Notes: generated from the sequence alone by a model not told the origin. Numbered from the stretch's first letter, positions 103-17,713 are shown. The stretch: 32,000 nt of DNA from Pseudanabaena sp. (GCA_044350865.1 JBILGV010000024.1:1-32000), one strand, 5' to 3'. Made by a program: numbers and translations.

Positions 103-1353
103 TCCCCTCAAATCCAGAAGAGCCGTTTTATTGCAATTGGCGACAATAAAGATGAAACAAACAAAGCAATTATTGATATATATTCAAGTGGAATTAATAC
201 ATCTCGTGACACTTGGGCTTATAGCTTTTCTCGTCAATCCCTAACAGACAATATGAAGAGAATGATTTCTTTTTATAATTCTCAAGTTGAAAAGTTCAAA
301 GAACATTCTAAAGACAAACTATTCAAAGATACTAAAGATAGGCAAGAAAAAGTAGAAGCGTTTATTAGCAATGATCCCCAAAATATAAGTTGGTCAAGAG
401 GATTAAAAAACGATCTTGGAAGACTTGTTAATTATGATTTCTCTGATGATTCAGTTGTTAAGGGAATGTATAGACCATACTGCAAACAGTGGTGCTATTT
501 CAACAAGTATTTTAATGACATGATCTACCAAATGCCTAGAATTTTTCCAAACAACAATCTGGAAAATCTAGTGATTAGCGTAACTGGAATAGGCGCAAGT
601 AAAGGTTTTTCAGCATTATTAACTGACTCTCTTCCAAATTACCATTTACACGATACTGGTAAATGCTTCCCACTTTATACCTATGAAAAACCCGAACCAA
701 CCGACCAAACCACACTCTTCCTAACCGAAACAGGCTACACCAAAAAAGAAAACATCCCCGACACCATCCTCAGCGACTTCCAAACCACCTATCAAGACCA
801 AACCATAACCAAAGAAGACATCTTCTATTACATCTATGGCATCCTTCATAGCCCCGAATACAAACAACGCTTCGCCGCCGACCTCAAAAAAATGTTGCCC
901 CGCATCCCCTACGCCGCCGACTTCCACAGCTTCAGCACCGCAGGACGCAACCTCGCCCAATGGCATCTCAACTATGAAAATATAGAACCCTATCCATTAG
1001 AAGAATTCAAAAGCGAACTCTATCTCGAAGCCAAAGACTATCGCGTAGAGCGCATGAAATTCCCCAACCGCAACAAAGCCGTAGACAAAACCACAATTAT
1101 CTACAACAGCAAAATCAGCCTCTCAGGCATACCATTAGAAGCCTACGAATACATCGTCAATGGCAAACCCGCCCTAGAATGGATCATGGAACGCTATCAA
1201 CTCACCCGCGACAAAGATAGCGGAATTACCAACAATCCCAACGACTGGTCAGACGACCCGCGCTACATCATCGATCTGGTTAAACGCATCGTGCGCGTAA
1301 GTGTCGAGTCGGTTAAAATTGTTAACAGCTTGCCACCATTGAATGAGAGATAG
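103..1353 (+). CDS. Type ISP restriction-modification enzyme, C-terminal (target-recognition) portion. The 5' part is outside the window and the frame is broken upstream of nt 103, so this may be a pseudogene
   Basis: Frame 1 is open 103-1353 (track ORF 253-1353). FIAIGDNK...SSGINTSRDTWAYSFS (about 127-231) and YIVNGKPALEWIMERYQLTRDKDSGITNNPNDW...VSVESVKIVNSLP match the pattern I associate with the C-terminal domain of LlaGI/LlaBIII-type Type ISP enzymes. Frame 1 has stops at 31, 37, 73, 85 and 100, so the large upstream helicase/methylase part cannot continue in this frame. Confidence 0.6.
   Translation, partial: SPQIQKSRFIAIGDNKDETNKAIIDIYSSGINTSRDTWAYSFSRQSLTDNMKRMISFYNSQVEKFKEHSKDKLFKDTKDRQEKVEAFISNDPQNISWSRGLKNDLGRLVNYDFSDDSVVKGMYRPYCKQWCYFNKYFNDMIYQMPRIFPNNNLENLVISVTGIGASKGFSALLTDSLPNYHLHDTGKCFPLYTYEKPEPTDQTTLFLTETGYTKKENIPDTILSDFQTTYQDQTITKEDIFYYIYGILHSPEYKQRFAADLKKMLPRIPYAADFHSFSTAGRNLAQWHLNYENIEPYPLEEFKSELYLEAKDYRVERMKFPNRNKAVDKTTIIYNSKISLSGIPLEAYEYIVNGKPALEWIMERYQLTRDKDSGITNNPNDWSDDPRYIIDLVKRIVRVSVESVKIVNSLPPLNER
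1312..1350 (+). repeat. Direct repeat copy A: native 3' end of the Type ISP gene (codons VKIVNSLPPLNER)
   Basis: 39 nt repeated at 1980-2018 with 33/39 identity. All 6 differences are synonymous in the reading frames used at each copy. Confidence 0.85.
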
Positions 1354-1582
1354 ACATACCATGCTTAAACCGATCACCCTTCAAGTCGAAGCCCCCATCG
1401 CTGAGGCATATCAAAATACAACACCTGAAAACCGTCAAGCCTTGCAAACCCTTGTCAGCATCTTTTTACAATGTATTTCCCAACCAACCCCACTCCAAAA
1501 AGTAGTCCAAGAAATTCGTTTAGAAGCACAACAAAAGGGACTTACTCCCGAAATCTTAGAGGAAATCCTCAAGGATGACTAA
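1343..1582 (+). CDS. Putative antitoxin partner of the PIN toxin (small acidic protein)
   Basis: 79-aa ORF with an alternative ATG at 1361. It begins across the stop codon of the Type ISP gene (1351-1353) and overlaps the downstream PIN gene by 8 nt. Assignment is by position only; no family was recognised. Confidence 0.5.
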   Translation: MRDRHTMLKPITLQVEAPIAEAYQNTTPENRQALQTLVSIFLQCISQPTPLQKVVQEIRLEAQQKGLTPEILEEILKDD

Positions 1583-2024
1583 ACTAAGATTAGTAATCGA
1601 TACCAACATCTTGGTCAGTGGCTTAATGTCTGTAAATTCTTTGCCTCAGCAGGTTTTTGACTATGCCACATCTGAAGCAATACTGCTGATATCAGATGAA
1701 GTTCAATCAGAAATAGAAAATGTCATCAGTCGCCCAAAACTCCAAAAATACATCACCTTAGAACGGCGTACTAAATTTTTAGCTGAATTAAGCCAGCAGG
1801 TCGAAAGAGTCACAATCAACCAGCAAATTCGAGCCTGTCGCGATCCCAAAGATGACAAGTTCCTAGAATTAGCTGTCTGCGGTGAAGCCAACTACATCAT
1901 TACAGGCGATGCCGATCTTTTAGATTTGCACCCATTCCAAAATATTTTTATCATCAAAGCCGCTAATTTTTTAACCGTAGTTAAAATCGTGAATAGCTTA
2001 CCACCATTGAATGAGCGCACCTAA
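1575..2024 (+). CDS. PIN-domain toxin (type II toxin-antitoxin system, PIN_3-like)
   Basis: LVIDTNILVSGL at the N-terminus, and DPKDDKFLELAVCGEANYIITGDADLL, give the acidic residues typical of PIN ribonucleases. The last 14 aa (VKIVNSLPPLNERT) are encoded by repeat copy B. Confidence 0.8.
   Translation: MTKLRLVIDTNILVSGLMSVNSLPQQVFDYATSEAILLISDEVQSEIENVISRPKLQKYITLERRTKFLAELSQQVERVTINQQIRACRDPKDDKFLELAVCGEANYIITGDADLLDLHPFQNIFIIKAANFLTVVKIVNSLPPLNERT
1980..2018 (+). repeat. Direct repeat copy B: second, diverged copy of the Type ISP gene 3' end, now forming the C-terminal tail of the PIN ORF
   Basis: See copy A. Both copies sit in a translated frame and encode the identical peptide. Confidence 0.85.
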
Positions 2025-2072
2025 ACCAAAAATGCTAAGATATGCTCACTCGCTTTGTAAGGAGGTTTCTGT

Positions 2073-2297
2073 ATGACTAACGCAACCTATGATGAAATTT
2101 TTGGAACAGTCTTAACCCTGCCCCCTCTATACCGCGCCATGCTTGCAGAACATCTCCTTAACAGCCTTGATGAAATTAATCCCGAAATCGAAACAGCTTG
2201 GAATAGAGAAATATCTAATCGTATAGAAGCGATCGACCAAGGTAAAGTTACCTTAATTCCAGCCGATCAAGTATTGCAAAAACTAAGGAATCGCTAA
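2073..2297 (+). CDS. Putative addiction-module antitoxin component (partner of the ParE/RelE toxin)
   Basis: 74 aa. LPPLYRAMLAEHLLNSLDE...ETAWNREISNRIEAIDQGKV resembles the 'putative addiction module component' family. AAGGAGG lies 8 nt upstream of the ATG. TAATG overlap with the next gene. Confidence 0.75.
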   Translation: MTNATYDEIFGTVLTLPPLYRAMLAEHLLNSLDEINPEIETAWNREISNRIEAIDQGKVTLIPADQVLQKLRNR

Positions 2298-2587
2298 TGT
2301 TTCTTGAGTTTGATCCTAATGCACAACTAGAACTTGAAGCAGCAGCTTCATACTATGACAGCATCAATCGTAAACTTAACCAAGCCTTTATTGATGCCGT
2401 TGAAAGAACCCTCAATCGCATCGTTCAGTTTCCAAATGCTTGGACACCAATGATTGCAGATGCTAGACGTTGCCATATTGACGGATTCCCCTATGGCATT
2501 GTGTACCGAGTTTGTGGCGATCGCATCCAGATCCTAGCTGTTATGCACCTACAACGCAAACCAAACTATTGGATAGATAGAAATTAG
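2297..2587 (+). CDS. Type II toxin-antitoxin system RelE/ParE-family toxin
   Basis: 96 aa. FPNAWTPMIADARRCHIDGFPYGIVYRVCGDRIQILAVMHLQRKPNYW is a typical ParE/RelE plasmid-stabilisation fold signature. Translationally coupled to 2073-2297. Confidence 0.8.
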   Translation: MFLEFDPNAQLELEAAASYYDSINRKLNQAFIDAVERTLNRIVQFPNAWTPMIADARRCHIDGFPYGIVYRVCGDRIQILAVMHLQRKPNYWIDRN

Positions 2588-2616
2588 ACATAAATCCGTT
2601 AAAAACATTATTCACT

Positions 2617-2808
2617 ATGAAAGATCCTTCAATTAAAATCAAAAAACCACCCAAGGAAGCCCTCATTGCCTTATGCCGTTCTGCTAAAAAAATGTCTGAA
2701 TTATTAAAAGCTCACGGCATTAGCGAAGATGAAATCATTGCCGAATTTAACGCTATGCGTAAACAAGCAAGGAAAGATGAAGACAATAATGGAACAGCCA
2801 AAACGTAG
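2617..2808 (+). CDS. Hypothetical small basic/acidic protein
   Basis: 63-aa ORF with an ATG start, co-oriented within the TA stack. No family recognised. Confidence 0.35.
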   Translation: MKDPSIKIKKPPKEALIALCRSAKKMSELLKAHGISEDEIIAEFNAMRKQARKDEDNNGTAKT

Positions 2809-2831
2809 AAATTTATCTTGGTAGTTAAATT

Positions 2832-3161
2832 ATGCCTGAAACATTACAGTACATAACCAACGAACAAGGCGATCGCATCGGCGTTGTCTTAGATTTAGAT
2901 ACCTATTCTCGACTTACTCCCGCTTTAGATCCTGAATATCTTATTGGCTTAAACACAGAAGAACTAAAAGCCCTCGCTACTTGCAAATTAGCCCTAACCG
3001 ATCAAAATCACCTAGATCAACTAATCGATAGAAACACCGAAAATTCACTCTCTGAAGAGGAACTTGATGATTTAGATGACCTTCTAGAGAAAGTGGATCA
3101 TCTCACTATCCTAAAAACTCGCGCCAGATACACCCTTAAGTCAAACAAAAAAGCAACCTAG
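2832..3161 (+). CDS. Hypothetical protein with an antitoxin-like N-terminus
   Basis: 109 aa. The N-terminal ITNEQGDRIGVVLDLDTYSRL resembles Phd/YefM-style antitoxin N-termini, and the C-terminus is acidic and helical. No adjacent toxin is seen. Confidence 0.4.
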   Translation: MPETLQYITNEQGDRIGVVLDLDTYSRLTPALDPEYLIGLNTEELKALATCKLALTDQNHLDQLIDRNTENSLSEEELDDLDDLLEKVDHLTILKTRARYTLKSNKKAT

Positions 3162-3185
3162 CCAAAATTGGTTAAGGTTGCTTTT
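3147..3185. terminator. Bidirectional intrinsic terminator between convergent genes
   Basis: AAAAAGCAACCT (3147-3158) pairs perfectly with AGGTTGCTTTTT (3174-3185). There is an A-run on one side and a T-run on the other. The stop codon of 2832-3161 sits in the loop. Confidence 0.7.
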
Positions 3186-3280
3186 TGAAAGGCTTACGAA
3201 GCAATGCTTTCAAATTTTTTCAAAAATAAAGTCCAGAAACCTTGAGAAGGGCTTAGCCATTTCCAACGTTTCTCGGTTTT

Positions 3281-4522
3281 CTAGAAACTAGGACTATTGA
3301 GCAGTAAATCAGAATTTAAAGTCACTGCTAAGTCAGTATTTGGATTGACAGAAGAGAGGGTAACACTGTCACGTCCTAGAAACAGACCGAGTAGAGTGGC
3401 AATCCCTGCACCACCAAGGATTTCTTCAGTGGCAAGAGCGCGATCGCCAGTTACAGCCGAGATCGCGGCGGCGGCAGCAGCACCGAGAGCAGCATTCTGG
3501 ACTAGTTTGCCCACGCTGATACCCTTATCAACTCTCTCAGTTGTAGTCACCACCTTAGAAGTGCCATTAAGTGGCAGCCTTTGTCCATTCGCAAACACAA
3601 GTTCGCTAGCAAAGAACTGAGCGCCACCAGATACGGTTCTCAATTCTCCAGACACTTGCGTACCCGCAGGAATTAAAATTTGACCTTGAGCATTGGTAAT
3701 ATTTTGTGGCACTGTGAGAATCAAAGGTACTTTTTCATCAGGACCTAACAAGATCTTGTCCTTGGAATACTGCACGGCGATCGTATTACCTGCGGGAATT
3801 CTCACCTGATTTTGGACTGGGGGATTATTGGTTTGACCGACGATATAGGGTGAAGCGATCGCTGTCACCTGCCCCGATCGCACTAAGCCTTGATAGATAA
3901 ACGCGGCAACTTCGGCTCTAGTCGCGGTTTGGTTAGGATTTAGAAACTGGACATTAGGATAGTTAACGACCATCCGATTTTCTGTCGCCGCCGCCACACT
4001 ACTTCGCGCATAGTCAGGAATGCTTGCAGCATCTGCATAAGTCTGCAAAATTGTCTCAGGTGCTTGATTTGCAGTGTAATTCAGACCATTAGCAAGGGAT
4101 ACTAAAATCTGTACGCGGGGGATATTTTGAGCGGGTTCAAAAACATTGCCTGGATAACCTGCCATAAAGCCTGTTGTGTATGCTTTTTGAATTGCTGAAG
4201 CAGCCCAATAGTTCGGATCAACATCTACGAACGTGACAGCATTGCGAGTCGGAGCTTTAGTCATCGCTTTGTTCAACATCGCGGCAAACTGCGCTCTAGT
4301 TACGGGATCGTTAGGACGAAATCCACCATCAGGGAAGCCTTTGATAATGTCTCTGGATGCTAACTCTTGAATAAAAGTTTGCGCCCAATAGTTGGTCGGT
4401 ACATCATTAAAAGTTGTCTGAGCAAGGGCGGAGGCTATGCTGATGAAGGGAATTGCAGAGCTACCAATGAAGCTAACAGCGACAAGTAAAGCAGTAGTAG
4501 AACGTTGCGTTTGATTTGTCAT
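3281..4522 (-). CDS. S-layer homology (SLH) domain protein with signal peptide and a glycine/alanine-rich C-terminal hydrophobic segment
   Basis: Three SLH-like repeats (FNDVPTNYWAQTFIQELASRDIIKGFPDGGFRPNDPVTRAQFAAML; FVDVDPNYWAASAIQKAY; YADAASIPDYARSSVAAA). The N-terminus is a hydrophobic signal. Confidence 0.8.
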   Translation of the reverse strand: MTNQTQRSTTALLVAVSFIGSSAIPFISIASALAQTTFNDVPTNYWAQTFIQELASRDIIKGFPDGGFRPNDPVTRAQFAAMLNKAMTKAPTRNAVTFVDVDPNYWAASAIQKAYTTGFMAGYPGNVFEPAQNIPRVQILVSLANGLNYTANQAPETILQTYADAASIPDYARSSVAAATENRMVVNYPNVQFLNPNQTATRAEVAAFIYQGLVRSGQVTAIASPYIVGQTNNPPVQNQVRIPAGNTIAVQYSKDKILLGPDEKVPLILTVPQNITNAQGQILIPAGTQVSGELRTVSGGAQFFASELVFANGQRLPLNGTSKVVTTTERVDKGISVGKLVQNAALGAAAAAAISAVTGDRALATEEILGGAGIATLLGLFLGRDSVTLSSVNPNTDLAVTLNSDLLLNSPSF

Positions 4523-4651
4523 TTTTAAGATGTCTCCTATGCAAGGTCATGCATATTTGATGAATGACTGTATATTCAAAACAAATGTTCCTGAAATATT
4601 TTTGCGTAAAATACTAAAATACAGGAAAATATTTCATTTTTACAGCTTATA

Positions 4652-4746
4652 ACTTAAATAAATCAATCAAGTCAAACATAAAAATTGTTATGTAGAGCCA
4701 AAATAATTTGACTTAATTAAATAAATCAATCAAATCAAACATAATA
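4652..4746. repeat. AT-rich direct repeat pair upstream of the SLH gene
   Basis: TAAATAAATCAATCAAGTCAAACATAA (about 4655-4681) recurs as TAAATAAATCAATCAAATCAAACATAA (about 4718-4744) with 1 mismatch, roughly 130-220 nt upstream of the start at 4522. Confidence 0.7.
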
Positions 4747-4787
4747 TCGTAAGTAATTAGGAATTACACAAAAAAACTAAACGTAAA

Positions 4788-4817
4788 CGTAGGGGCAATT
4801 CATGAATTGCCCCTACG
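4788..4817. terminator. Perfect 30-nt palindrome downstream of tyrA; probable terminator and member of a repeated palindromic element
   Basis: CGTAGGGGCAATTCATGAATTGCCCCTACG is its own reverse complement. On the minus strand it is followed by a T-rich run. The core GGCAATTCATGAATTGCC recurs at 22171-22200. Confidence 0.65.
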
Positions 4818-4833
4818 CTAAAATCGATGCAGC

Positions 4834-5697
4834 TTACAAATACAGATTGCGATCGCTTTGAGTATTAGTCAAAAAAGCTTCGAGTTGTTCCCATTGTTGT
4901 GACTCAACTAAACCAATCACGTCCTGTAAAGATTGTTGATAGGTATAGAGCGATCGCAATAATGCTGAGTGATTATATTCCGCCATTAGTCGCCCTAATT
5001 CAGGATTGCCGCCACCCACACGACTGGTATCCCGAAATCCTGAGCTAGCTAAATTTTGAGCTAATTGCAGCACGATCGCATCGTTTTCCTGCTGACAGGA
5101 TGCAATTAAACTGGCGCTAATCATCACGGGTAAATGGCTAATCATCGCCACAGCGCGATCATGATCTTCAGGATTACATTCATAAACTTTCATTCCCACC
5201 GTTTGCCAAAGCGATCGCACTTTCTCGACTGCTTCAAGATCATCGCTAGGCGTGACAACACAGGGGCGATTTTGAAATAAATTTTGTTCGGCGGCGGCGA
5301 TACCTTGAAAAGCAGTACCTGCCATCGGATGGCTACCGATAAATCTCTGGTTATACTTTTGACAAATATTGGTCGCAGGTTCAACGATCGCTGCCTTGAC
5401 TGAACCGACATCGGTAAAAATTAGATTAGGCGACAACTTTGGAGCTAGTGCCGAAATCGTTGGTAAAATCGCGGCGATCGGCGTGCAGATGACCACAATA
5501 TCGGTTTGACTGAGAATGCGATCGGGAATATTGGCGATATCTGGATTAGCAATATTTACAGAGGCGATCGCTTCGGCTTGTTTACAGGTTTCAGGACTAC
5601 GGCTGATCCCCCAAACATAATGATCTTGATTTAAAGCGATCAGATCGAGTCCCAGCGAACCACCAATTAAGCCCAATCCAACTATGCCAATGTTCAT
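4834..5697 (-). CDS. tyrA: Prephenate/arogenate dehydrogenase
   Basis: N-terminal Rossmann motif MNIGIVGLGLIGGSLG, and GSHPMAG, typical of TyrA-family dehydrogenases. Length 287 aa fits the cyanobacterial arogenate dehydrogenase. Confidence 0.85.
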   Translation of the reverse strand: MNIGIVGLGLIGGSLGLDLIALNQDHYVWGISRSPETCKQAEAIASVNIANPDIANIPDRILSQTDIVVICTPIAAILPTISALAPKLSPNLIFTDVGSVKAAIVEPATNICQKYNQRFIGSHPMAGTAFQGIAAAEQNLFQNRPCVVTPSDDLEAVEKVRSLWQTVGMKVYECNPEDHDRAVAMISHLPVMISASLIASCQQENDAIVLQLAQNLASSGFRDTSRVGGGNPELGRLMAEYNHSALLRSLYTYQQSLQDVIGLVESQQWEQLEAFLTNTQSDRNLYL

Positions 5698-5710
5698 AAT
5701 ATCTACCCTA

Positions 5711-5736
5711 TAAAAAGCAAAGGGCGCGGAGCGCCC
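5711..5736 (-). terminator. Intrinsic terminator after rpmB
   Basis: GC stem GGGCGC/GCGCCC (5722-5736), followed on the minus strand by TTTGCTTTTTA. Confidence 0.6.
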
Positions 5737-5748
5737 CCTACTTTTATC

Positions 5749-5985
5749 TTAGAACTTGTTAAGGTCAAGCCCTGCTTCCTTAGCAAATGCTGACAAACCC
5801 TTCTTTTGCAAAGTTTTGATTGCTTTGGTGGAAATTTGTAATTTTACAAAACGTTTTCCTTCTGCCCACCAAATTCTTTTATCTTGTAAGTTTACATGTT
5901 GTAAGTGCTTGTGACGCTTGTGCGAGAACGAAATCGATACAGAGTTATTGGCTTTTTTGCCTGTTAGTTGGCATACACGACTCAT
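5749..5985 (-). CDS. rpmB: 50S ribosomal protein L28
   Basis: [34 protein letters not shown] is the canonical L28 N-terminus. GGAG lies upstream. Confidence 0.95.
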
Positions 5986-6132
5986 AGTACTAGTCTCCTA
6001 TTTTTTCAGTCCAGTTGACAATATTACAACCTTTTGTGATAAAAGATCAAAAAATTATCTGCGCTGTGGGTGAAGGATAATTAGAGATAATATAGAATTC
6101 ATATTTTTTATCGTCAGGAAGCCGCAACAACC

Positions 6133-6756
6133 ATGATGAGCCAAGCCTTGCCTAAAGTTACAACCTTTGACGAGTTTGTGGAATTTCTTCCTGAAAATTC
6201 GGGCGTACGTTACGAACTACATAACGGAAATTTTACTAGAATAATTCAACCAGTTGGAGAACACGAAGAGTCTAAGGGCTTCTTGACCATAAAAATTGCT
6301 GTTGAAATCAAACGGGTACAACTTCCCTATGGTATTCCCAATCAAGTGATAGTTAGACCTGAAGGCAAAGATTCTGGATATTTTCCAGATATATTAGTGA
6401 TGAATCGTGCCAATCTGCCTAATGAACCGCGATGGAAAAAAGAATCGATTCTGAGTCAGGGAGCCTCCATTCCTTTAGCGATCGAAATTGTATCCACTAA
6501 CTGGCGGGATGATTATCATTTGAAATTTGCTGATTATGAAGAGATGGGAATTGCGGAATATTGGCTTGTGGATTATGCAGCTTTGGGAGGACGCAACTTC
6601 ATTGGTAATCCTAAACAACCGACTATATCAGTTTGTAATTTGCTGGATGGAGAATATCAAATTAGCAAATTTCGAGATAGCGATCGCCTAATCTCACAAA
6701 CTTTCCCTAACCTAAATCTCACCGCAAATCAAATTTTTCAAGCTGGCGTAGTTTAA
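6133..6756 (+). CDS. Uma2-family (DUF820) PD-(D/E)XK endonuclease
   Basis: FDEFVEFLPENSGVRYELHNG..., PDILVM..., LAIEIVSTNWRDDY...KFADYEEMGIAEYWLVD follow the typical Uma2 pattern (D...E-x-K-like core). Confidence 0.8.
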   Translation: MMSQALPKVTTFDEFVEFLPENSGVRYELHNGNFTRIIQPVGEHEESKGFLTIKIAVEIKRVQLPYGIPNQVIVRPEGKDSGYFPDILVMNRANLPNEPRWKKESILSQGASIPLAIEIVSTNWRDDYHLKFADYEEMGIAEYWLVDYAALGGRNFIGNPKQPTISVCNLLDGEYQISKFRDSDRLISQTFPNLNLTANQIFQAGVV

Positions 6757-6779
6757 TTAATGATGTACTGAGTCGTAAC

Positions 6780-7760
6780 ATGTTTTATCCTCGTCTTAGC
6801 GGCGATCGCTATATCAACCCACTTACAGATTTTGGCTTCAAGCGCCTATTTGGAACCGAGCCGAACAAAAACCTGTTGATTGATTTTCTGAATGTAATCT
6901 TACCAACCCAACATCGGGTCAAAGATCTCACCTATCGCAGTACTGAAAACCTTGGCAATACGCCCCTTGATCGCAAGGCAGTCTTTGATCTTTACTGTCA
7001 AAGCGAAAAGGGCGAGAAATTCATTGTCGAAATGCAAAAGGCTAAACATAATTATTTTAAAGATCGCAGCATTTACTACGCATCTTTTCCCATTCAAGAC
7101 CAAGCAGAAAAAGGAGATTGGAACTACAAACTTGATCCAGTTTATACCATCGGCATTTTAGACTTTGTTTTTGATGAAGATAAAAACGATGACACTCTCT
7201 TACATATCGTTGAACTCAAAGATCAAAATTGCAAAGTTTTCTACGAAAAGCTGAAATTTATTTATCTGGAATTACCAAAATTCAAAAAAACAATCGATCA
7301 ACTAAACGACCATTTTGACAAGTGGTTGTTTTTGCTGAAACATCTACCCGATTTAGAAGAACCGCCTTTACCATTGCAAGAAAACGTATTTATGCAACTA
7401 TTTGAAGTTGCCCGAATTACGAACTTTTCTCCAGATGAACGGGAAGCCTATGAAAACAGCTTAAAGTATTATCGAGACATGAATGGTGTCATTGAAACAG
7501 CAAGAGAAGAAGGGAAAGTTCAAGGTATTCAAGAGGGTAAGGCTCAAGGTATTCAAGAGGGGAAGGCTCAAGGTGTGCAAGAGGGGAAAAGCTCTCTTTT
7601 GCTAAAACTGCTTTCTCGCAAACTAGGAACCATATCTGATGAAATTAAAGTTCTGTTGCACGAGTTATCGTCAGAACGATTAGATGTTTTGAGTGAAGCT
7701 TTGTTTGAATTAGAAAGCTTGGCAGATTTACACAATTGGCTCGAAAATATTAACAACTAG
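6780..7760 (+). CDS. Rpn-family recombination-promoting nuclease / PD-(D/E)XK putative transposase
   Basis: N-terminal YINPLTDFGFKRLFG...NKNLLIDFLNVIL, DLYCQSEKGEKFIVEMQ, and a C-terminal EGKxQGxQ repeat followed by an LLL..L helix are typical of this family. Confidence 0.8.
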   Translation: MFYPRLSGDRYINPLTDFGFKRLFGTEPNKNLLIDFLNVILPTQHRVKDLTYRSTENLGNTPLDRKAVFDLYCQSEKGEKFIVEMQKAKHNYFKDRSIYYASFPIQDQAEKGDWNYKLDPVYTIGILDFVFDEDKNDDTLLHIVELKDQNCKVFYEKLKFIYLELPKFKKTIDQLNDHFDKWLFLLKHLPDLEEPPLPLQENVFMQLFEVARITNFSPDEREAYENSLKYYRDMNGVIETAREEGKVQGIQEGKAQGIQEGKAQGVQEGKSSLLLKLLSRKLGTISDEIKVLLHELSSERLDVLSEALFELESLADLHNWLENINN

Positions 7761-8156
7761 CAATATCCTCGGCGAGTAAAATTAATGGTTCGTTCTCGAT
7801 CTCAAGTATCGCCTCGGTAGTAGAGGGAAGCGGAGGCTCTGTATTCAAGAGGGTAAGGCTCAAGGTATTCAAGAGGGGAAGGCTCAAGGTGTGCAAGAGG
7901 GGAAAAGCTCTCTTTTGCTAAAACTGCTTTCTCGCAAACTAGGAACCATATCTGATGAAATTAAAGTTCTGTTGCACGAGTTATCGTCAGAACGATTAGA
8001 TGTTTTGAGTGAAGCTTTGTTTGAATTAGAAAGCTTGGCAGATTTACACAATTGGCTCGAAAATATTAACAACTAGCAATATCCTCGGCGAGTAAAATTA
8101 ATGGTTCGTTCTCGATCTCAAGTATCGCCTCGGTAGTAGAGGGAAGCGGAGGCTCT
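7525..8156. repeat. Perfect tandem duplication, 2 x 316 bp (7525-7840 and 7841-8156)
   Basis: By-eye comparison finds the two units identical. The twin track ORFs at 7568-7756 and 7884-8072 are offset by exactly 316 nt. Each unit is the last 236 nt of the Rpn-family gene plus 80 nt downstream. Confidence 0.9.
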
Positions 8157-8171
8157 GGTACAATGGATGAT

Positions 8172-11870: not shown

Positions 11871-11961
11871 AGTGAGATGCCCCCTTAAAGGCTGACAAAA
11901 GAAAGATGCAGTCAAAGATCTACTTTACTTTATATCATTATTAGAATTACACATCGCATTT

Positions 11962-12879
11962 TTATGACAAGCGATCGCTGCTTAAAAATGACATCATCTC
12001 TTGGGCAGTGATTTCGGGGCATTCGAGATGGGGAACATGACCACTATTTTTAATCCAGACCAGTTTGTTGTTAGGAATTGTGGATTGGAACTTGAGAGCG
12101 TCCTTTGTACCGAGAATGCGATCGCGATCGCCCCAGAGAATCAGGGTATCTTGTTGCAAATATTTTAAATGCTTCTCAAAGGAGCCGTAACCACCACTTT
12201 GAGTAAAGGAAATTAGTGATTCACTCCAAAATGGACTTGCTAAATGGAATGACGCACAAACTTCCGCATCGGCGGTGACAAAACGCGGATCTGCATAAGC
12301 TTTGAGGCTAACTTCACGGCGGACTTTGGGACTACGGAGAAAATCAGTTGCCATCCGATCCAATGGTGGTCTGAGAAATTTACCCGCTAACGAACCTTTT
12401 CGCATTCCTGCACTATCGATTAAAATTAGTTTCTGCACCATGTCGGGATAGGTAAGCGTAAAATCGATCGCCGCCGCCCCACCCATTGATGCACCCACTA
12501 AAATTACAGGTTTAGCGATCATTGTCTTCCAAAAACTATAAAGATGCTCTTTAATTGTTTCTGTGGTAACTCGAACATCGGTAAGTCGTTCAGTCAGTCC
12601 AAAACCGAATAAATCGATCGCCCAAGTTTGATAAGAGCTAGCAAGTTGCGGTAATAGCCGCCGAAATTCAAACAGGGAGCTATCAAAACCATGCAATAGC
12701 AAAATTGATGGATCGCTTTGATTTTTGGGGCTGCCATCGCAGACATAGCTGGTTAAAATTAGTTCACTAGTAAAGGAAGTTGAAACAAGACAAAACTGGA
12801 TTTGATCGGCGATCGCTATGGAGGTTGTTTCTGTTAATTGCGATCGGAGGTTAGAAACTTCAATGGGTAAATTCGACAT
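11962..12879 (-). CDS. Alpha/beta-fold hydrolase
   Basis: LLLHGFDSS oxyanion region, nucleophile elbow GASMGG, and a C-terminal GHVPHLE histidine motif. Confidence 0.8.
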   Translation of the reverse strand: MSNLPIEVSNLRSQLTETTSIAIADQIQFCLVSTSFTSELILTSYVCDGSPKNQSDPSILLLHGFDSSLFEFRRLLPQLASSYQTWAIDLFGFGLTERLTDVRVTTETIKEHLYSFWKTMIAKPVILVGASMGGAAAIDFTLTYPDMVQKLILIDSAGMRKGSLAGKFLRPPLDRMATDFLRSPKVRREVSLKAYADPRFVTADAEVCASFHLASPFWSESLISFTQSGGYGSFEKHLKYLQQDTLILWGDRDRILGTKDALKFQSTIPNNKLVWIKNSGHVPHLECPEITAQEMMSFLSSDRLS

Positions 12880-12889
12880 TAGCTGTTAA

Positions 12890-13603
12890 TTAGTTCTTAA
12901 ATCGATGTAAGTGCATTTTGGCAAGGGTTGCGGCGGTAATTGTGGCATAAAACGGGGTAAATCCCAGAAAAAACAAGAGGATTCCATACAAACTGCCTAA
13001 GCCTCGAAAGATCAAGATAATAGCGATCGCGATGAATATAACTAAAATTATATTCACGCCAATCCATAAAAAAGAACGTCGATTAATCGCTTTCACACCT
13101 TGTCCATTCCAGATTACTAACCATTGTAAAACACCAATCAAAACTCCCGATAACAACAGCCAAAGGGAATTAGTCAGCAATAAGGGAATGCGATCAAGAA
13201 TAGTACTTGCAGCAAAAGAACCATCCGTATTGAGTACAAATCCAAATTGGGAAGTATAGGCTAAATTTGTCGCGGCAACCCCAATCCAAAGCCAGCCAAA
13301 GATGCTTGCTAAAATCCACCATGTCGCGGATTTGAGAAATCGGCGCAAAACCAAGTATTGTAACAAGCCCACAAATGCCCCCACAAAAATTGCCCCACCG
13401 ACAATGCCAGTCGCGACAGGACAATTGAGACTTCCAAAACCTGTATGGCAAATTCCCAAAGCGATCAGGTGATCGCCTAAATAATGCACCCCCGCCAGAC
13501 AAGCCGCCACGCCAAAAATGTTGCCGATCGCAGCCCCTACTATTGTGGCAAGTACCCACCGCCACCAAAGACCGACACTCGATAAAGGGCGTTGCTGTTG
13601 CAT
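12890..13603 (-). CDS. Hypothetical polytopic membrane protein
   Basis: 237 aa, almost entirely hydrophobic helices. Its start abuts the stop of the upstream gene (TAGATG). No family recognised. Confidence 0.55.
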   Translation of the reverse strand: MQQQRPLSSVGLWWRWVLATIVGAAIGNIFGVAACLAGVHYLGDHLIALGICHTGFGSLNCPVATGIVGGAIFVGAFVGLLQYLVLRRFLKSATWWILASIFGWLWIGVAATNLAYTSQFGFVLNTDGSFAASTILDRIPLLLTNSLWLLLSGVLIGVLQWLVIWNGQGVKAINRRSFLWIGVNIILVIFIAIAIILIFRGLGSLYGILLFFLGFTPFYATITAATLAKMHLHRFKN

Positions 13604-15121
13604 CTAAATTAACTCTTCGGTGACAATCCTACGCAAAATTTCCGCGACCGTAGCAGCCATTATGACATCAATTTCTAAAGCTTCGCGATCAGGATTTTTG
13701 AGATCGAGAACAGCGCGAAGGGTCATATTCACAGAACGGAGTTTTGGTAATGGTTGATCATGAGTCTCAGCAAGGCGATCGACAAATTGAATACAGGCTG
13801 TATAGGTCAATTCTGTACATTTACGCTGATCACTATAGCCAAATCCCATTTTGGAAATCACCACGGGATCACCGATGAAATATTGTAAACCCAAAGCGGC
13901 GATCGCTGCATCTACATATCTCGCTGTATCCTGCCCCATTGAGACAATCAAGGTGCTTAAGCTATGCCATTGCGCCGCAGGTAGGCGATCGCTTGGTGGT
14001 ATATGGCGATGCCAAGATATTTGAGAAATAATTCTGGTGAGATCGTAAGCCGAAATAAAATTATCGCCACGATGAGGTTCTTTAGAAAATTCAAAAATCG
14101 GATTGCCAACCGAGTCAAGCAATAGCGGCTTTTCGATAAATGGCTTTTCGCCGTAACGTCCTTGAAAAGTGAGAGATTGATTACCAGTGATTCCTTTTAA
14201 CCAATTTTGTAACTCTAGGGGTGTCGTAAACTGCTTAAACATAGCTGCTAAAGCATTGGAAGACATGCCATCAGATTCATCGTAATCACACATGCGTTGA
14301 GCCATCGCCGCAAATGTGCGATATGAGCGTGTATTTTGAGAGTCAGCAATTATGCAGGAGGAGATCGCTTGATTCGGTTTAGATTGGTTTGCCTTACAAA
14401 TGGTATGTAACAATGGCAATATTTTCGTGGAACTCCAAAACTGGACATTTCGCAAAGGATTTCGACCAATCCAACGGGTCAACATTTGCCCATTCACCAC
14501 GCTACCGATACAAACACAGGCTTCTTGGATGTTGCTACTGAGAAACTCCAAGCCAATATTTTCGATATTGGGAATTTGCCCAAGTCTTGGGTAGGGACGA
14601 AAGCGCACCCGCACTTGCGAGCCTCTTAACATGGCAACTTCACCATAGGAAACGACATTTACACCATCAGGCAAACTGGCGAGGCGATCGGGATAGGTTT
14701 GAATATGGCTGACAAATGGCGATGGTGCAAAGTTACGACTGGGCAGGCTATTCATTTTTCCTGCAATACAACCATTAAATCCGCGATCGAGAAAGCCTAA
14801 ATGATTTTCATCAGCTTGCCCCATATTCACGAATATGCGCTGAGCATTCATAAATTTCTGGTATAGGCGATCGCCATCTCCTGTAATTTGCTGTAAATGC
14901 CTAACCACCGCAGGGCTTTGCAAAAGATTATTTGTAATTGCTTGAGAGGTAGCATCCAAGATCGTATCAAGGCTAAGAGCATTGGCAAACTGAGCAAAAG
15001 CAATTTCGGTTAATTTGCCATAGAGGCCGTCAACTTCACCATCGTATAGCCCTAAACGCTGCAAACCTGTCTGAGCTTGGGTTAATTCCTCTCCCAAAAG
15101 CTTTACCTCTATTACCGCCAT
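13604..15121 (-). CDS. Hypothetical protein: N-terminal peptidoglycan-binding-like domain plus possible serine beta-lactamase/DD-peptidase-like domain
   Basis: LQRLGLYDGEVDGLYGKLTEIAFAQF fits PG_binding_1. Candidate SxxK (S230-S-T-K233), SxN (S287-S-N289) and KxG (K424-M-G) motifs lie in class-A-like order. The second domain is inferred from motifs only. Confidence 0.45.
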   Translation of the reverse strand: MAVIEVKLLGEELTQAQTGLQRLGLYDGEVDGLYGKLTEIAFAQFANALSLDTILDATSQAITNNLLQSPAVVRHLQQITGDGDRLYQKFMNAQRIFVNMGQADENHLGFLDRGFNGCIAGKMNSLPSRNFAPSPFVSHIQTYPDRLASLPDGVNVVSYGEVAMLRGSQVRVRFRPYPRLGQIPNIENIGLEFLSSNIQEACVCIGSVVNGQMLTRWIGRNPLRNVQFWSSTKILPLLHTICKANQSKPNQAISSCIIADSQNTRSYRTFAAMAQRMCDYDESDGMSSNALAAMFKQFTTPLELQNWLKGITGNQSLTFQGRYGEKPFIEKPLLLDSVGNPIFEFSKEPHRGDNFISAYDLTRIISQISWHRHIPPSDRLPAAQWHSLSTLIVSMGQDTARYVDAAIAALGLQYFIGDPVVISKMGFGYSDQRKCTELTYTACIQFVDRLAETHDQPLPKLRSVNMTLRAVLDLKNPDREALEIDVIMAATVAEILRRIVTEELI

Positions 15122-15271
15122 TGATTGCCTCTGCTTAAAGAAAGCTTAATTTTTTGCTGAATTTGCTGGATTTATTGGTTATGGTGGCGCTATTAGTGGC
15201 GATCACTATTAATAGTTTATCTATAAGTCAGGCGATCGCGATGTATCCCAGTTTTTGTAAAGGAAAAATAT

Positions 15272-15661
15272 TTACACATTCACCTTATAGTTCAGGCTTA
15301 GCTCATCGCCAGCGACTCCACGAATTGCCCAATTATATTTCGGTGTCTCGATTAGAATAATTTCAATATCCAATGGCTCTATGCTCAAATTATCCTTGAG
15401 TCTTTCAAATAGCAAACGATATAGATGTTTTTTCGCGTCCACTGAACGCCCTTCAAACATCAGGATTTCGATGATGATATATTGCTCAGTGCGATCGCTA
15501 GGATATTCAAAGTCTTCAGCTTGCAATGGAAAGAATCGCTGAAATTTCTTTTCGATGGGATAATTCAGCGCATCAACGATACAGGAATGGATCGTAGTCG
15601 ATAGAGTTTCGCGATTTTGCTGAATGAAATTAGCATTTCCGTAGATTTTCGTTTGGGGCAT
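15272..15661 (-). CDS. Tautomerase-family protein (4-oxalocrotonate tautomerase-like, long form)
   Basis: 129 aa starting Met-Pro (catalytic Pro1). The overall pattern ...YIIIEILMFEGRSVDAKKHLYRLLFERL...IILIETPKYNWAIRG matches the about 130-aa tautomerase_3-type proteins. Confidence 0.7.
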   Translation of the reverse strand: MPQTKIYGNANFIQQNRETLSTTIHSCIVDALNYPIEKKFQRFFPLQAEDFEYPSDRTEQYIIIEILMFEGRSVDAKKHLYRLLFERLKDNLSIEPLDIEIILIETPKYNWAIRGVAGDELSLNYKVNV

Positions 15662-15700
15662 AACTGAATTTTAAGAATATTTATTGTTTATTTGTTTGTA

Positions 15701-15746
15701 TTTTACAGGTAGGCGATCGCGCATAACCTTAACGATTCAGTCCATT
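15701..15746 (-). repeat. Relic copy of the cobS 3' end (direct repeat X), marking the distal boundary of the inserted cassette
   Basis: 40/46 nt identical to 17668-17713. On the minus strand it encodes WTESLRLCAIAYL-stop, against the cobS C-terminus WTETLSLCAIAYL-stop. The DUF4276-like ORF ends (TGA, 15737-15739) inside it in another frame. Confidence 0.85.
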
Positions 15747-16474
15747 ACATCAACTGCTTTTACCGCGCTCATTAGATTTTGAGTAAAGACTGCATATCCA
15801 CTTGGGCAATGAGTTTTTATAACTGCTAAATCTATGTCATGAGCCAAATTCCAGCGAATCTGTAGTGGGCGTTGATTGCTGGTATTCTCGTCAAGATAGG
15901 TGGATTGGGCGATCGCGCTTTCTAAAATTTCTTTTGAATTTTCTAAATCTTCTAAGTTTTCCAGCTTTTCAATCTCTACACCTAAAATCCCTGAAACAGT
16001 CTGAGTATCGGCAAGTAACCATGTTTCAAAATTTCTAATCGCTAATCCACCCGCACTGCGATCGCTAATTTCCTGTTCATCAGCATCTAAATGATTACTA
16101 CGAATTTTAGCTAAAGCAAGTTCTAAATCACGCTGTCTCTTAGGCAAAATGTCATCAGCATCAGCCACAATCAAAATCATATCGACCTCTTCAGGTTTCC
16201 ACGCGATGACCACTTGGGCGAGATATTTTGGCTGTAAAATTGAGTGTCCAGTACCCCGCGTAAAAAGCCCACTTTCATGATTTGTAGGATGTCGTTGCAC
16301 AAAGTCACAATCTAAACCAATACCTTGAATTTCTCGTCTAATCAGCGTATGCAAAGCACCTTCTTTACCTCTTTCAATAACTTTGCCACCATCTTCTGGG
16401 TTGATGTATGGAATACTTGCACCGAGTTCTGCTTCACCTTCAGCAATTAGTCCAATCCGAATCCGACGATTCAT
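15737..16474 (-). CDS. DUF4276-like protein with Toprim-type acidic motifs (putative nuclease subunit)
   Basis: 245 aa. RIGLIAEGEAE (aa 6-16), ILIVADADD (aa 100-108) and IRNFETWLLAD (aa 146-156) match the EGxxE / DxD / E-x-W-L-L-A-D pattern I recall for DUF4276. ATGA overlap with the upstream ATPase gene. Confidence 0.65.
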   Translation of the reverse strand: MNRRIRIGLIAEGEAELGASIPYINPEDGGKVIERGKEGALHTLIRREIQGIGLDCDFVQRHPTNHESGLFTRGTGHSILQPKYLAQVVIAWKPEEVDMILIVADADDILPKRQRDLELALAKIRSNHLDADEQEISDRSAGGLAIRNFETWLLADTQTVSGILGVEIEKLENLEDLENSKEILESAIAQSTYLDENTSNQRPLQIRWNLAHDIDLAVIKTHCPSGYAVFTQNLMSAVKAVDVMD

Positions 16475-17661
16475 GCAGGATTGCCTCCAAACTGGTTAGT
16501 AAACCAAAGCTCACCGAGAGAGCCATCATAGGCTTCGAGAGCTTTTTGAAAACGCACAGAATCTGTGGGTAAATTATGGACTTGGGTTTTACCTTCATTG
16601 TCAAGCTCTACAGCGCGAACTTGGTGCGGCTCGACATAATTTAGTAATACTGGTGAATGGGTTGTAATCAATACCTGAACTGGCTTACCTGTAATCCCTT
16701 CTGTGGAAACAAGTTTTAATAGCTCTATCATTTTATGTAATAACCAAGGATGCACACCATTTTCAATTTCTTCAAAGCAAATAATACTTGGAGTATCTTC
16801 TTGGTATAACGCTGTTAGAAAAGCTAAAATTCTTAATGTCCCATCAGATATATCAGAAGCAGGAATAGGCGTTTCCGAATATTTATCAATTAACTGCAAT
16901 GAAAAAGTTTGATCTTTACCACGCAGTAATGAGATTCTTTGAATATTAGGAACTAGTAATCTTAGACGTTCTTCTAACTCATCAAAACTTTTACGATTAC
17001 TAAATAAAATGTCGGCTAAAGCATAAGAAATCCCCTCTCCTGTTCTTTCCATGTTGCTAAATGATTGCACTTCGTCAGACAAACTTAACGGTGCGAAATC
17101 ATAAATACAAATCTTACGCAGGGCGCTAGCTATGGGAGAAGATTGATAATTATTAGAAACCAAAAATGTTCTTAAGGGTTCTGTCCATTTATCTGAACAA
17201 CGAATGTCAACGGCTATATTGTCAGAACCAACTAGGGCATTTTGAAAAGTATCTATGCTAAAGCTTTGCTGATGATAGTTAAAACTTGCTACAAGTTCAG
17301 AAAATCTTGGTAAATCAATATTTTTTTCTAATGTCGTGCTGATCATAAAGCAAATATGATCTAGACTTCCATGCCAAAACTTAGACTCAATATTCCGTTG
17401 TTTTTTACTTATGCTTTCTAATGATTGAGAGAAAAAATCTTTGACTAGATTATTACTCGATATGTTTATCAGCCTTTGTAAACAATTAGAAAATACAAAT
17501 AGCGATTCACAAATATTTGATTTCCCAGAGCCATTTGGTCCTATGAAAACTGTTAGTGGTTGGAGATCGATTTCGGTATCAAAGAGGCTCTTATAGTGTT
17601 GAACTTTGAGTTTAGTTAACATCTGTTTGGTGGTTGAGGTCAAATATTGAATTAGAGTCAT
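16471..17661 (-). CDS. ABC/SMC-type AAA_21-like ATPase (partner of the DUF4276-like protein)
   Basis: Walker A GPNGSGKS (aa 41-48, nt 17518-17541), signature-like SDGTLR (272-277), Walker B IICFEE (293-298), NGVHP, and H-loop TTHSP (333-337). About 220 aa is inserted between Walker A and the signature, as in RecF/OLD/AriA-type ATPases. The ATG lies 8 nt after the cobS stop. Confidence 0.8.
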   Translation of the reverse strand: MTLIQYLTSTTKQMLTKLKVQHYKSLFDTEIDLQPLTVFIGPNGSGKSNICESLFVFSNCLQRLINISSNNLVKDFFSQSLESISKKQRNIESKFWHGSLDHICFMISTTLEKNIDLPRFSELVASFNYHQQSFSIDTFQNALVGSDNIAVDIRCSDKWTEPLRTFLVSNNYQSSPIASALRKICIYDFAPLSLSDEVQSFSNMERTGEGISYALADILFSNRKSFDELEERLRLLVPNIQRISLLRGKDQTFSLQLIDKYSETPIPASDISDGTLRILAFLTALYQEDTPSIICFEEIENGVHPWLLHKMIELLKLVSTEGITGKPVQVLITTHSPVLLNYVEPHQVRAVELDNEGKTQVHNLPTDSVRFQKALEAYDGSLGELWFTNQFGGNPA

Positions 17662-17667
17662 ACTTTA

Positions 17668-17713
17668 TTTTACAGGTAAGCGATCGCACATAAACTTAGC
17701 GTCTCAGTCCATT
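17668..17713 (-). repeat. Direct repeat Y: the functional 3' end of cobS (proximal boundary of the cassette)
   Basis: Pairs with 15701-15746 (40/46 identical; 4 of the 6 differences are synonymous in the cobS frame). Confidence 0.85.

Follow-up and report, generated by a model that had tools for sequence, protein, structure and literature searches.

Displaced gene ends around toxin–antitoxin and HEC-01 cassettes in Pseudanabaena as probable scars of ordinary recombination

The stretch of DNA considered in this work, hereafter called the window, comprises 32,000 nucleotides of a metagenome-derived contig of Pseudanabaena sp. (GCA_044350865.1 JBILGV010000024.1:1-32000), and it carries two gene cassettes, i.e., a toxin–antitoxin (TA) pair, here named TA1, and the two genes of the candidate defense system HEC-01. 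Each cassette lies 3′ of a host gene, a Type ISP restriction-modification (RM) gene in the first case (locus A) and cobS in the second (locus B), and each is enclosed by two diverged copies of the end of that gene. To discuss how this arrangement may have arisen, the window is compared with related loci, designated by L numbers, which were gathered by one scan each of genome and metagenome collections and are mostly metagenome-assembled genomes (MAGs) or metagenome contigs. The genes nearest to the cobS of the window belong to Pseudanabaena MAGs and strains, the left end of the contig lies 3 nt beyond the window start, and the HIP1 octamer (GCGATCGC) occurs at a density of 1.75 per kb.

After a 316-bp tandem duplication, the top direct repeats of the window are two diverged pairs. 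Pair A spans 1312–1347 and 1980–2015 (36 nt, 89% identity) and reaches, at the protein level, the peptide VKIVNSLPPLNER in both copies; pair B spans 15699–15746 and 17666–17713 (48 nt, 88% identity). With 48.2 and 60.8 bits, respectively, they score above every one of 100 dinucleotide shuffles (highest 36.5). The two repeats described in a first-pass annotation, made from the sequence alone, were recovered independently. Copy 1 of each pair consists of the final codons and the stop of a host gene. Read in the host frame, pair A has six synonymous and no non-synonymous nucleotide differences, and pair B has four and two, respectively, within the repeat, a codon-wise count that agrees with the synonymous share of 10/12 given earlier. 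The corresponding binomial tail is ~1e-4 to 7e-4, computed on 10/13 because the script adds a boundary codon just beyond the 48-nt repeat, and the mismatches between the copies involve all bases.

The perfect 316-bp duplication (7525–8157) covers the 3′ end of a PDDEXK_2/DUF4351 (Rpn-like) gene and had been considered a possible third instance of the same pattern. It is missing from the public contig Ga0453186_0000146, which in all other respects matches the window at 100% identity across 20.7 kb, so that no third instance is recognized here, and the duplication is likely an assembly or version difference, or else a very recent event.

Regarding mobility functions, no integrase, resolvase, or transposase domain was detected in a search confined to the window, for which Pfam was applied to a subset of the open reading frames (ORFs) and combined with the precomputed Pfam annotation of the contig. 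The window also gave no tRNA, no Rfam family match, and no terminal inverted repeats at the cassette ends, and no reverse transcriptase domain was found among its ORFs scanned with Pfam. These domain scans, together with an inverted-repeat search of the window, bear out the earlier description of both cassettes as free of recombinase, transposase, and terminal inverted repeats. In addition, plasmid sequences searched with the DNA of both cassettes returned no match, and the viral contigs contained no close relative of either the DUF4276 gene or the PIN_3 toxin.

The HEC-01 cassette after cobS

The host gene of locus B, cobS (17670–18422, minus strand), encodes a cobalamin-5-phosphate synthase of 250 aa (Pfam CobS, E 6e-48), and its orthologues were compared at 25 Pseudanabaena loci. 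The last 14 codons, the stop, and 4 further nt form the proximal copy found by the repeat search (17666–17713, minus strand), which holds a HIP1 octamer. On the same strand, this copy is followed by a leader (17623–17665), conserved together with the cassette in L010, L003, L085, L012, L027, and L083, by a gene for a HEC-01A-type AAA_15/AAA_21 ATPase (16471–17622; Pfam, PADLOC), and by a HEC-01B/DUF4276 gene (15737–16474), whose stop falls within the first 10 nt of the distal copy (15699–15746, minus strand). PADLOC assigns the two adjacent genes to the candidate system HEC-01 (HEC-01A, E 9e-47; HEC-01B, E 7e-10), for which an anti-phage role is predicted. As judged from 3′ ends read by eye, the DUF4276 protein of the window appears to end ∼2–3 codons before its more distant homologues.

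The origin of the distal copy becomes apparent from L009, an empty site where the cobS stop leads directly into the intergenic region before a tautomerase gene, which directly follows cobS there and is the resident gene at 15272–15661 (minus strand) in the window. Because the distal copy of the window and its flank align with the cobS end of L009, this copy is read as the resident gene end pushed downstream, still contiguous with the resident cobS–tautomerase intergenic region. The same cassette follows cobS in L010 (96% aa identity), L012, L027, L083, and L085, and the decayed leftovers in L003 (leader plus 65 ATPase codons) and L023 (∼25 nt of leader) indicate that cassettes have been lost as well. 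The region 3′ of cobS differs in almost every genome, and no flanking repeats were found around the HEC-01 cassettes at 47–79% aa identity that occupy other contexts (L084, L086–L098). A promoter and terminator scan of the cobS region gave no signal exceeding shuffles, and for this reason the idea that remnants are kept for the promoter of the downstream gene stays speculative.

In L012, the proximal copy is of the cassette-linked type (..YL*, TAAAATAAAG plus leader), and the distal copy and the sequence behind it match L021 at the end of cobS and in its flank, i.e., another end type (..YLS*/YLN*) in another neighborhood. The junction between DUF4276 and the remnant has the same register in the window, L010, and L012; as the flank of L012 differs from that of the window, one junction is found in two resident backgrounds. 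Within the L012 remnant, decay affects the left part, and the right part stays near the resident sequence. When four-fold degenerate sites are considered, the cassette of the window diverges by 0.15–0.24 from that of L010 and by 0.27 from that of L012, to be compared with 0.33 and 0.43, respectively, for cobS. Moreover, where the proximal copy carries its HIP1 site, identity between the window and L010 rises from ∼88% to ∼95%, and within the right-hand portion of the distal copy it drops again.

Other features of this locus are reported here for completeness. L027 and L083 were considered as remnant-free donors with a clean AATGGA microhomology joint, an idea that was dropped because the 24 nt past their DUF4276 stop match cobS at 17/24 positions (hand count), which is ambiguous. 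An insert resembling a miniature inverted-repeat transposable element, with terminal inverted repeats (AATTAAAYGTAGGAT), separates the cobS stop from the leader in L012 (4190–4310), L027 (6205–6325), and L083 (∼395–480); it measures ∼125 nt in the first two, is shorter in the third, and is absent from the window, L010, L003, and L085. The HEC-01 ATPases of the window, L012, L027, L083, and L085 fall into two allelic types, ∼72–77% identical in aa, next to DUF4276 proteins that are ≥90% identical, and in L085 an ATPase of the second type is paired with a window-like DUF4276 (95%), which suggests that either the cassette recombined internally or the ATPase diversified. Distant HEC-01 cassettes (L086, L087, L093, and L097, the last reading CCTGTATAATAAAG) have in their leader a −10-like box that the cobS stop region (CCTGTAAAATAAAG, 17666–17680) resembles, a similarity that may reflect microhomology at the left joint or simply the promoter consensus. 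Finally, the L009 contig starts with an inverted copy of the cobS 5′ end (1–213) beside the forward gene, probably an artefact of MAG assembly, and its tautomerase gene is apparently frameshifted, whereas the cobS of L025 (6001–6939) is internally duplicated, with aa 1–185, a 27-nt gap, and then aa 132–250, and may represent a cargo-free long duplication or, again, an assembly artefact.

Type ISP gene ends and cassette arrays

At locus A, all features lie on the plus strand. The contig end cuts the host gene, leaving the C-terminal ∼410 codons of a Type ISP RM enzyme with its target-recognition domain (124–1353); the ORF at 253–1353 matches Pfam Type_ISP_C (E 1e-101), and the tblastn comparison with the full-length enzyme of L113 covers aa 1324–1733, with homology beginning at nt 124. 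The proximal copy (1312–1353, from the repeat search) contains the last 13 codons (VKIVNSLPPLNER) and the stop, and the peptide ..VKIVNSLPPLNER* is the conserved C-terminus of this enzyme family. Its allele type (..AGATAGACAYACCATG) is always linked to the TA1 cassette, and TA1 is in turn always preceded by a Type ISP end of this type, coming from either an intact gene or a remnant.

TA1 begins with a 73-aa antitoxin (1361–1582, start MLKPITLQ), which lacks a Pfam match and is called as the same 73-aa gene at all related loci. It overlaps by 8 nt with the gene for a PIN_3 toxin of 149 aa (1575–2024; Pfam PIN_3 at residues 5–113, E 1e-20), and the gene order is that of a type II (PIN/VapC-like) system, with the antitoxin not matching any family. 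The cargo of both cassettes thus corresponds, by Pfam and PADLOC, to what the first-pass annotation had assigned. Its claim that both cassettes start within 10 nt of the host stop holds for the antitoxin, whose start at 1361 is 7 nt beyond the Type ISP stop, but not for the ATPase of locus B, whose conserved start at 17622 (MLTKLKVQHY in all homologues) lies 47 nt past the cobS stop, the upstream ATG being missing in relatives.

The last 14 codons of the PIN_3 toxin are read in frame from a Type ISP-end remnant. Its homologues exist in two forms, of 140 aa (..FLTAIALHP*) and of 148/149 aa (..FLT[AV]VKIVNSLPPLNER(T)*), which split right after FLT. The shorter form was initially regarded as the native C-terminus, a view rejected on inspection of L106, where the tail AIALHP* is an out-of-frame reading of a ∼105-nt Type ISP remnant that opens with a HIP1 site directly behind FLT. 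Hence, both forms are fusions to a Type ISP remnant, one of them out of frame, and the PIN junction of the window reads as that of L106 minus an internal remnant stretch, estimated at some tens of nt. The distal copy (1980–2024), a displaced Type ISP gene end (VKIVNSLPPLNERT*), is a shortened version of the L106 remnant. In public databases, dozens of PIN_3 clusters (P0121–P0193) have C-termini of either the AIALHP or the VKIVNSLPPLNER kind, i.e., translated Type ISP-end remnants; junction ORFs are chimeric, and databases therefore hold many artefactual C-termini among the 140-aa and 148/149-aa PIN proteins.

In all genomes, the proximal end at this locus reads AGATAG and the distal end CGCACCTAA. 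At the sites where the two copies of the window differ (ATT/ATC, GTT/GTG, AAC/AAT, and TTG/TTA), functional Type ISP ends and remnants vary as well, in synonymous fashion. The synonymous bias is thus explained by the copies being two distinct functional alleles of one gene end, and the earlier argument that such a bias speaks against neutral decay of a local duplication stands, as functional alleles already carry these synonymous variants as standing polymorphisms.

Behind the remnant, the window continues with a second, co-oriented TA cassette (2073–2587, plus strand) formed by Unstab_antitox and ParE genes (Pfam), homologues of which are present in further TA arrays that lack a Type ISP gene, and then with a third co-oriented pair of small genes (63 aa and 109 aa; 2617–3161, plus strand) having a weak RelB-like match; no remnant was detected around this third pair.

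Stacking is more evident in the relatives. Pseudanabaena sp. ABRG5-3 (L100) has the order Type ISP, PD-T4-4 (two genes), a 214-nt remnant decayed by stops and an indel, and TA1, and CP192607 (L113) has a full-length Type ISP gene, a TumE TA pair, a remnant, and TA1. L106–L111 present a longer series, namely Avs4, a 59-nt remnant, TA1, the ∼105-nt remnant, ParDE, a 97-nt remnant, and a PIN_2 TA pair. ParDE is missing from L114–L118, where the remnant after TA1 looks hybrid, its 3′ end and leader fragment resembling, as read by eye, the third remnant of L106; this is consistent with a putative loss of ParDE through remnant-by-remnant recombination. The Type ISP-end remnants to the left of TA1 measure 45, 59, at least 105, 214, and at least 264 nt, and the notion that three of them share a left boundary at one HIP1 site was dropped since the L113 remnant reaches further upstream (by eye). 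In two complete Pseudanabaena genomes, insertion sequences (IS; DDE_Tnp_1) break or replace the Type ISP gene (L100, 7010–7945; L112, 5984–7126), with an MmeI-type enzyme or a fragment of it nearby; the locus is a fast-turnover defense island.

A self-comparison for further repeats, covering 1.09 Mb of fetched loci, extended the pattern to other host genes. The Pseudanabaena MAG L034 has a Phd–PIN cassette after an Hsp70-like gene, followed by a 40-nt copy of the gene end (95% identity) and then by pdhA. In Pseudanabaena sp. UWO310 (L131), a BrnTA pair together with a homologue of the second TA pair of the window sits in mid-gene, splitting a small DUF4926 gene, and is bounded by a 54-nt duplication (94% identity). 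No core motif is shared among the cobS, Type ISP, Hsp70-like, and DUF4926 repeats, for which the first-pass annotation had proposed to look. A heptamer microsatellite match in L065, also from the repeat scan, was discarded. The TA island of UWO310 contains, in addition, ∼57–60-nt HIP1-containing tandem-repeat clusters between co-oriented TA cassettes (L131, 4064–4330, 5597–5736, 6465–6633, and 7176–7263), and a CRISPR-like array, with six copies of a repeat core (GTTTCCGTCCCCGTTGAGGGGAAGTGGTTTGGAAAG) at 70–76-nt spacing, lies just 5′ of a homologue of the second TA pair of the window in L129 (4840–5260).

Recombination scars and competing explanations

Taken together, these comparisons of sequences show that the cassettes were inserted rather than locally duplicated, the distal copy being the resident gene end; that events recurred at the same gene end with different boundaries, thereby building arrays; and that cassettes were lost, in one case apparently through remnant-by-remnant exchange. 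On this basis, we consider it probable that the repeats are scars of ordinary recombination, left by the insertion, stacking, and removal of cassettes, and that the remnants then act as homology arms.

At the birth of such an arrangement, a TA or defense cassette would be joined to the chromosome by non-site-specific recombination, with a joint either anchored in the conserved host gene on the incoming DNA or formed at short microhomologies, leaving 40–214 nt of the target on both sides of the insert, a product termed insertion with long target duplication by Furuta et al. (PMC2853133). Candidate microhomologies, judged without the pre-insertion donor sequences, are AATGGA (DUF4276/cobS), the HIP1 octamer (PIN/Type ISP), and TAYGAATA (PD-T4-4). 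If the target consists of the terminal codons of a gene that the cell needs, this gene would be kept intact by the proximal copy and the resident end would be displaced as a remnant; insertions elsewhere in needed genes would be lost by selection, hence the prevalence of 3′ ends. Homology-facilitated illegitimate recombination (HFIR), which usually deletes recipient DNA, leads one to expect a donor allele in the proximal copy and a resident allele in the distal one. This is the distribution seen in L012, with a cassette-linked proximal type and a distal copy of the L021 type, and at locus A, with its constant AGATAG proximal and CGCACCTAA distal ends, although later allelic replacement could mimic this proximal-donor, distal-resident pattern.

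Once born, the cassette would be flanked by homology to a single gene, whole on the left and as a remnant on the right, and general homologous recombination after DNA uptake could copy it into strains with a different downstream flank. Cyanobacteria are polyploid and thus offer spare chromosome copies for interchromatid integration. Spread might then proceed either by two crossovers, of which the right-hand one falls within the remnant, or by interchromatid integration as in pneumococcus (PMC3784515). Recombination between remnants would delete a cassette, new cassettes would stack ahead of old ones, and the product would be integron-like arrays of gene, cassette, remnant, cassette, and remnant, with no integrase.

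Several points weigh against this account. It rests as a whole on comparing assemblies, many of which are MAGs, and the arm of 48 nt at 85–90% identity is close to the lower limit for RecA-type exchange, so that spread via the remnant should be rare. For the birth event, homology-anchored displacement and two-ended illegitimate joining predict nearly the same product. No empty site of locus A, i.e., a Type ISP end directly before the Unstab_antitox/ParE pair, was found among P0051 and the ParE homologues. Moreover, all of the cassettes seen (9/9) are co-oriented with the host gene, a bias that recombination scars do not predict, and HIP1 at the repeat boundaries, treated below, could indicate a sequence-dependent nuclease or recombination function instead of purely general recombination.

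The alternative that survives best, and which we nonetheless regard as unlikely, is a one-step insertion with long target duplication that leaves inert scars. In this case, illegitimate joining would occur at both ends, for example through a bridge between two chromosome copies or the filling-in of a break with a wide stagger, the copies would be identical at birth, and later allelic replacement of the host gene would supply the synonymous differences. The mid-gene duplication in DUF4926 (54 nt, 94% identity, with no surrogate end) fits this explanation, as do the 95% identical repeat of L034 and the allele features (ILDLIKC type) shared by the remnant before TA1 in L100 and that after TA1 in L106; 45–47-bp and longer duplications around RM genes, with no mobility genes and in two cases overlapping gene 3′ ends, are moreover on record (Furuta et al., PMC2853133). 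Left unexplained by it are the occurrence of the same DUF4276/remnant junction with two resident cobS end types and flanks, the apparent hybrid remnant of L114, and the lower divergence of the cassette relative to its flanks.

A different extension concerns HIP1. Exact HIP1 sites occur within ≤4 nt of a repeat boundary in three of six events (random expectation 0.49, P 0.008), and HIP1-like sites (≥7/8 positions) are at the boundary in five of six (P 0.0003), in a post hoc test on events from the window, L100, L106, L034, and L131, two of which share a boundary. HIP1 in homology arms is reported to have raised integration efficiency in Synechococcus PCC 7002, an effect that its authors found reminiscent of Chi (bioRxiv 10.1101/2024.09.10.611283), and HIP1 was also proposed as an uptake signal. 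By analogy, HIP1 could serve as the microhomology of the first joint or boost the short remnant arms. Pushed further, duplicated gene ends that mostly bear or adjoin HIP1 would constitute a recombinase-free capture platform, in which HIP1 provides the first-joint microhomology or a Chi-like stimulus and HIP1-containing remnants are portable short homology arms, so that defense and TA cassettes are captured, stacked, and exchanged at conserved gene 3′ ends across Pseudanabaena. In function, this would be an integrase-free integron, to which the many Rpn/PD-(D/E)XK nucleases encoded nearby might contribute. We find this idea rather doubtful at present; if true, HIP1 would have a definite part in gene acquisition.

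Site-specific integration, as proposed by the first-pass annotation, is in our view very improbable. It would make the cassettes integrase-less modules akin to cis-mobilizable elements (CIMEs), with gene-end mimics as element-borne attachment (att) sites and a tyrosine or serine recombinase encoded elsewhere. The precise-looking empty site L009 and the constant DUF4276/remnant boundary in the window, L010, and L012 speak in its favor, but an empty site and a constant cobS–cassette boundary are equally expected if the remnant is a homology arm. Further support could be seen in the identity switch between the window and L010 at equivalent positions of both copies, in the enrichment of repeat boundaries beside the HIP1 palindrome, and in a small serine recombinase (Resolvase plus Recombinase) on one distant metagenome contig (L128, 1490–2164), 220 nt 3′ of a Type ISP_C-only ORF ending ..NERT*, which could be a specificity-domain-switching invertase or part of an element. 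This proposal is weakened by the boundaries of the Type ISP-end remnants, which range from 45 to more than 264 nt, by the lack of a motif common to the four kinds of repeats, by the mid-gene insertion of L131, by a distal copy that is the resident allele and continuous with its own flank, and by PIN and DUF4276 ORFs that are truncated or fused at the junction. In addition, distant HEC-01 cassettes have no repeats, i.e., an att copy does not accompany the element everywhere, and the searches for a recombinase in the window, for plasmid matches to the cassette DNA, and for close viral-contig relatives of DUF4276 and PIN_3 were all negative. What stands of the first-pass proposal is the recurrent architecture, i.e., recombinase-free, co-oriented cargo bounded by a duplicated gene end, with further instances in related Pseudanabaena (L100, L106, L113, L034, and L131); what finds no support is the new integrase-driven mode, and ordinary homologous replacement from a donor, which had been set against that mode from the outset, largely explains the loci. 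The repeats may still be attachment-like in one sense, as homology arms for general recombination.

A local tandem duplication of the gene end with neutral decay and unrelated cargo is scarcely credible and is refuted for both loci, because homologues of the cargo exist elsewhere, because the empty site lacks it, and because the differences are synonymous-biased and allelic, even if cargo-free perfect or near-perfect duplications do occur in assemblies (the 316-bp one, missing from the public contig, and that of L025 cobS). Other readings were rejected: a diversity-generating retroelement (no reverse transcriptase domain among the scanned ORFs, and mismatches that involve all bases and are synonymous, not adenine-specific), an integron (no integrase, no inverted repeats at the cassette ends, and a recurring sequence that is a direct copy of the host-gene end), and tRNA-att or transposon insertion (no tRNA, transposase, or terminal inverted repeats in the window).

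If the repeats are indeed recombination scars, they suggest a route by which defense islands and TA arrays grow at conserved gene 3′ ends without mobile-element genes, and the leftover gene ends would record the order of acquisition. A short duplicated gene end, especially one with HIP1, is then predicted to suffice for moving a cassette into strains with unrelated flanks.

Comparison with known systems

Three known phenomena come closest to the arrangement described here, namely insertion with long target duplication, HFIR, and C-terminal displacement with orphan arrays. The first of these (Nobusato et al. 2000; Furuta, Abe & Kobayashi 2010, PMC2853133) was reported with repeats of more than 30 bp that are single-copy in the empty site and vary in length, around inserts with no transposase or integrase. 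In Haemophilus influenzae, two such cases have 46-bp repeats overlapping a gene 3′ end, and a Microcystis case was also reported (PMC2853133). The cobS locus agrees with these features, having a 48-nt repeat, a 1.9-kb insert (<20 kb), the empty site L009, and no mobility gene. It departs from them in lacking the R and M genes, which in that study were a search filter and not a mechanistic requirement. In the Furuta cases, the cargo is an RM system and DNA breakage by the restriction enzyme is suspected, whereas the cargo here (antitoxin plus PIN_3, HEC-01, and PD-T4-4) needs no restriction enzyme, which widens insertion with long target duplication from RM genes to TA, HEC-01, and PD-T4-4 cassettes and argues against the cargo's own restriction nuclease causing such insertions. 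Beyond those cases, the events seen here stack into arrays, and the two copies are different alleles.

As cited in PMC5361080 and PMC3240628, HFIR (de Vries & Wackernagel 2002; Prudhomme et al. 2002) likewise combines a one-sided homologous anchor, here the host gene, with a non-homologous tail joined at microhomology, and needs no mobile-element genes; it is rare in experiments, and unlike there, the joint here lies upstream of the anchor end, so that the recipient gene end is duplicated. This mechanism was also proposed (PMC5361080) for C-terminal displacement at Rhs, contact-dependent inhibition (CDI), and type VI secretion system (T6SS) effector–immunity loci with their orphan arrays (Jackson et al. 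2009; Kirchberger et al. 2017, PMC5361080). In these loci, as in ours, a module enters at the 3′ side of a conserved gene and pushes older modules and 3′ fragments downstream, co-oriented and with no integrase. The displaced piece there is a distinct toxin tip with its immunity gene, whereas here a gene end that has not changed is displaced as a copy of 45–264 nt, and the modules are defense or TA cassettes unrelated to one another.

A further parallel, and a tested route, is offered by the merodiploidy that transformation triggers through interchromatid integration (Johnston et al. 2013, PMC3784515), in which both ends of a donor fragment find one and the same chromosomal sequence, each on a separate chromosome copy, and the new DNA becomes flanked by a duplication. 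Its duplications extend over 100–900 kb and are bounded by IS in Streptococcus pneumoniae, whereas the repeats here are of 40–200 nt and in cyanobacteria.

Among site-specific systems, the integrative and conjugative elements (ICEs) ICESt1 and ICESt3 and the CIMEs of Streptococcus thermophilus integrate at the 3′ end of fda. They share with our loci direct repeats made of a gene 3′ end, the supply of a surrogate end, and the existence of integrase-less derivatives; they differ in having a fixed att core and a cognate integrase, whereas the boundaries here are variable and no integrase is evident. Integrons, finally, resemble these arrays in their co-oriented, promoter-proximal stacking, their recurring separator sequence, and their cargo rich in TA and defense genes, but neither IntI nor attC hairpins are present here, and the separator is the end of the upstream gene, of variable length. 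The present case is set apart by its TA, HEC-01, and PD-T4-4 cargo, by a displaced piece that is a gene end without change, and by platforms that include a restriction gene, cobS, and an Hsp70-like gene; it is not regarded as a new class of mobile element.

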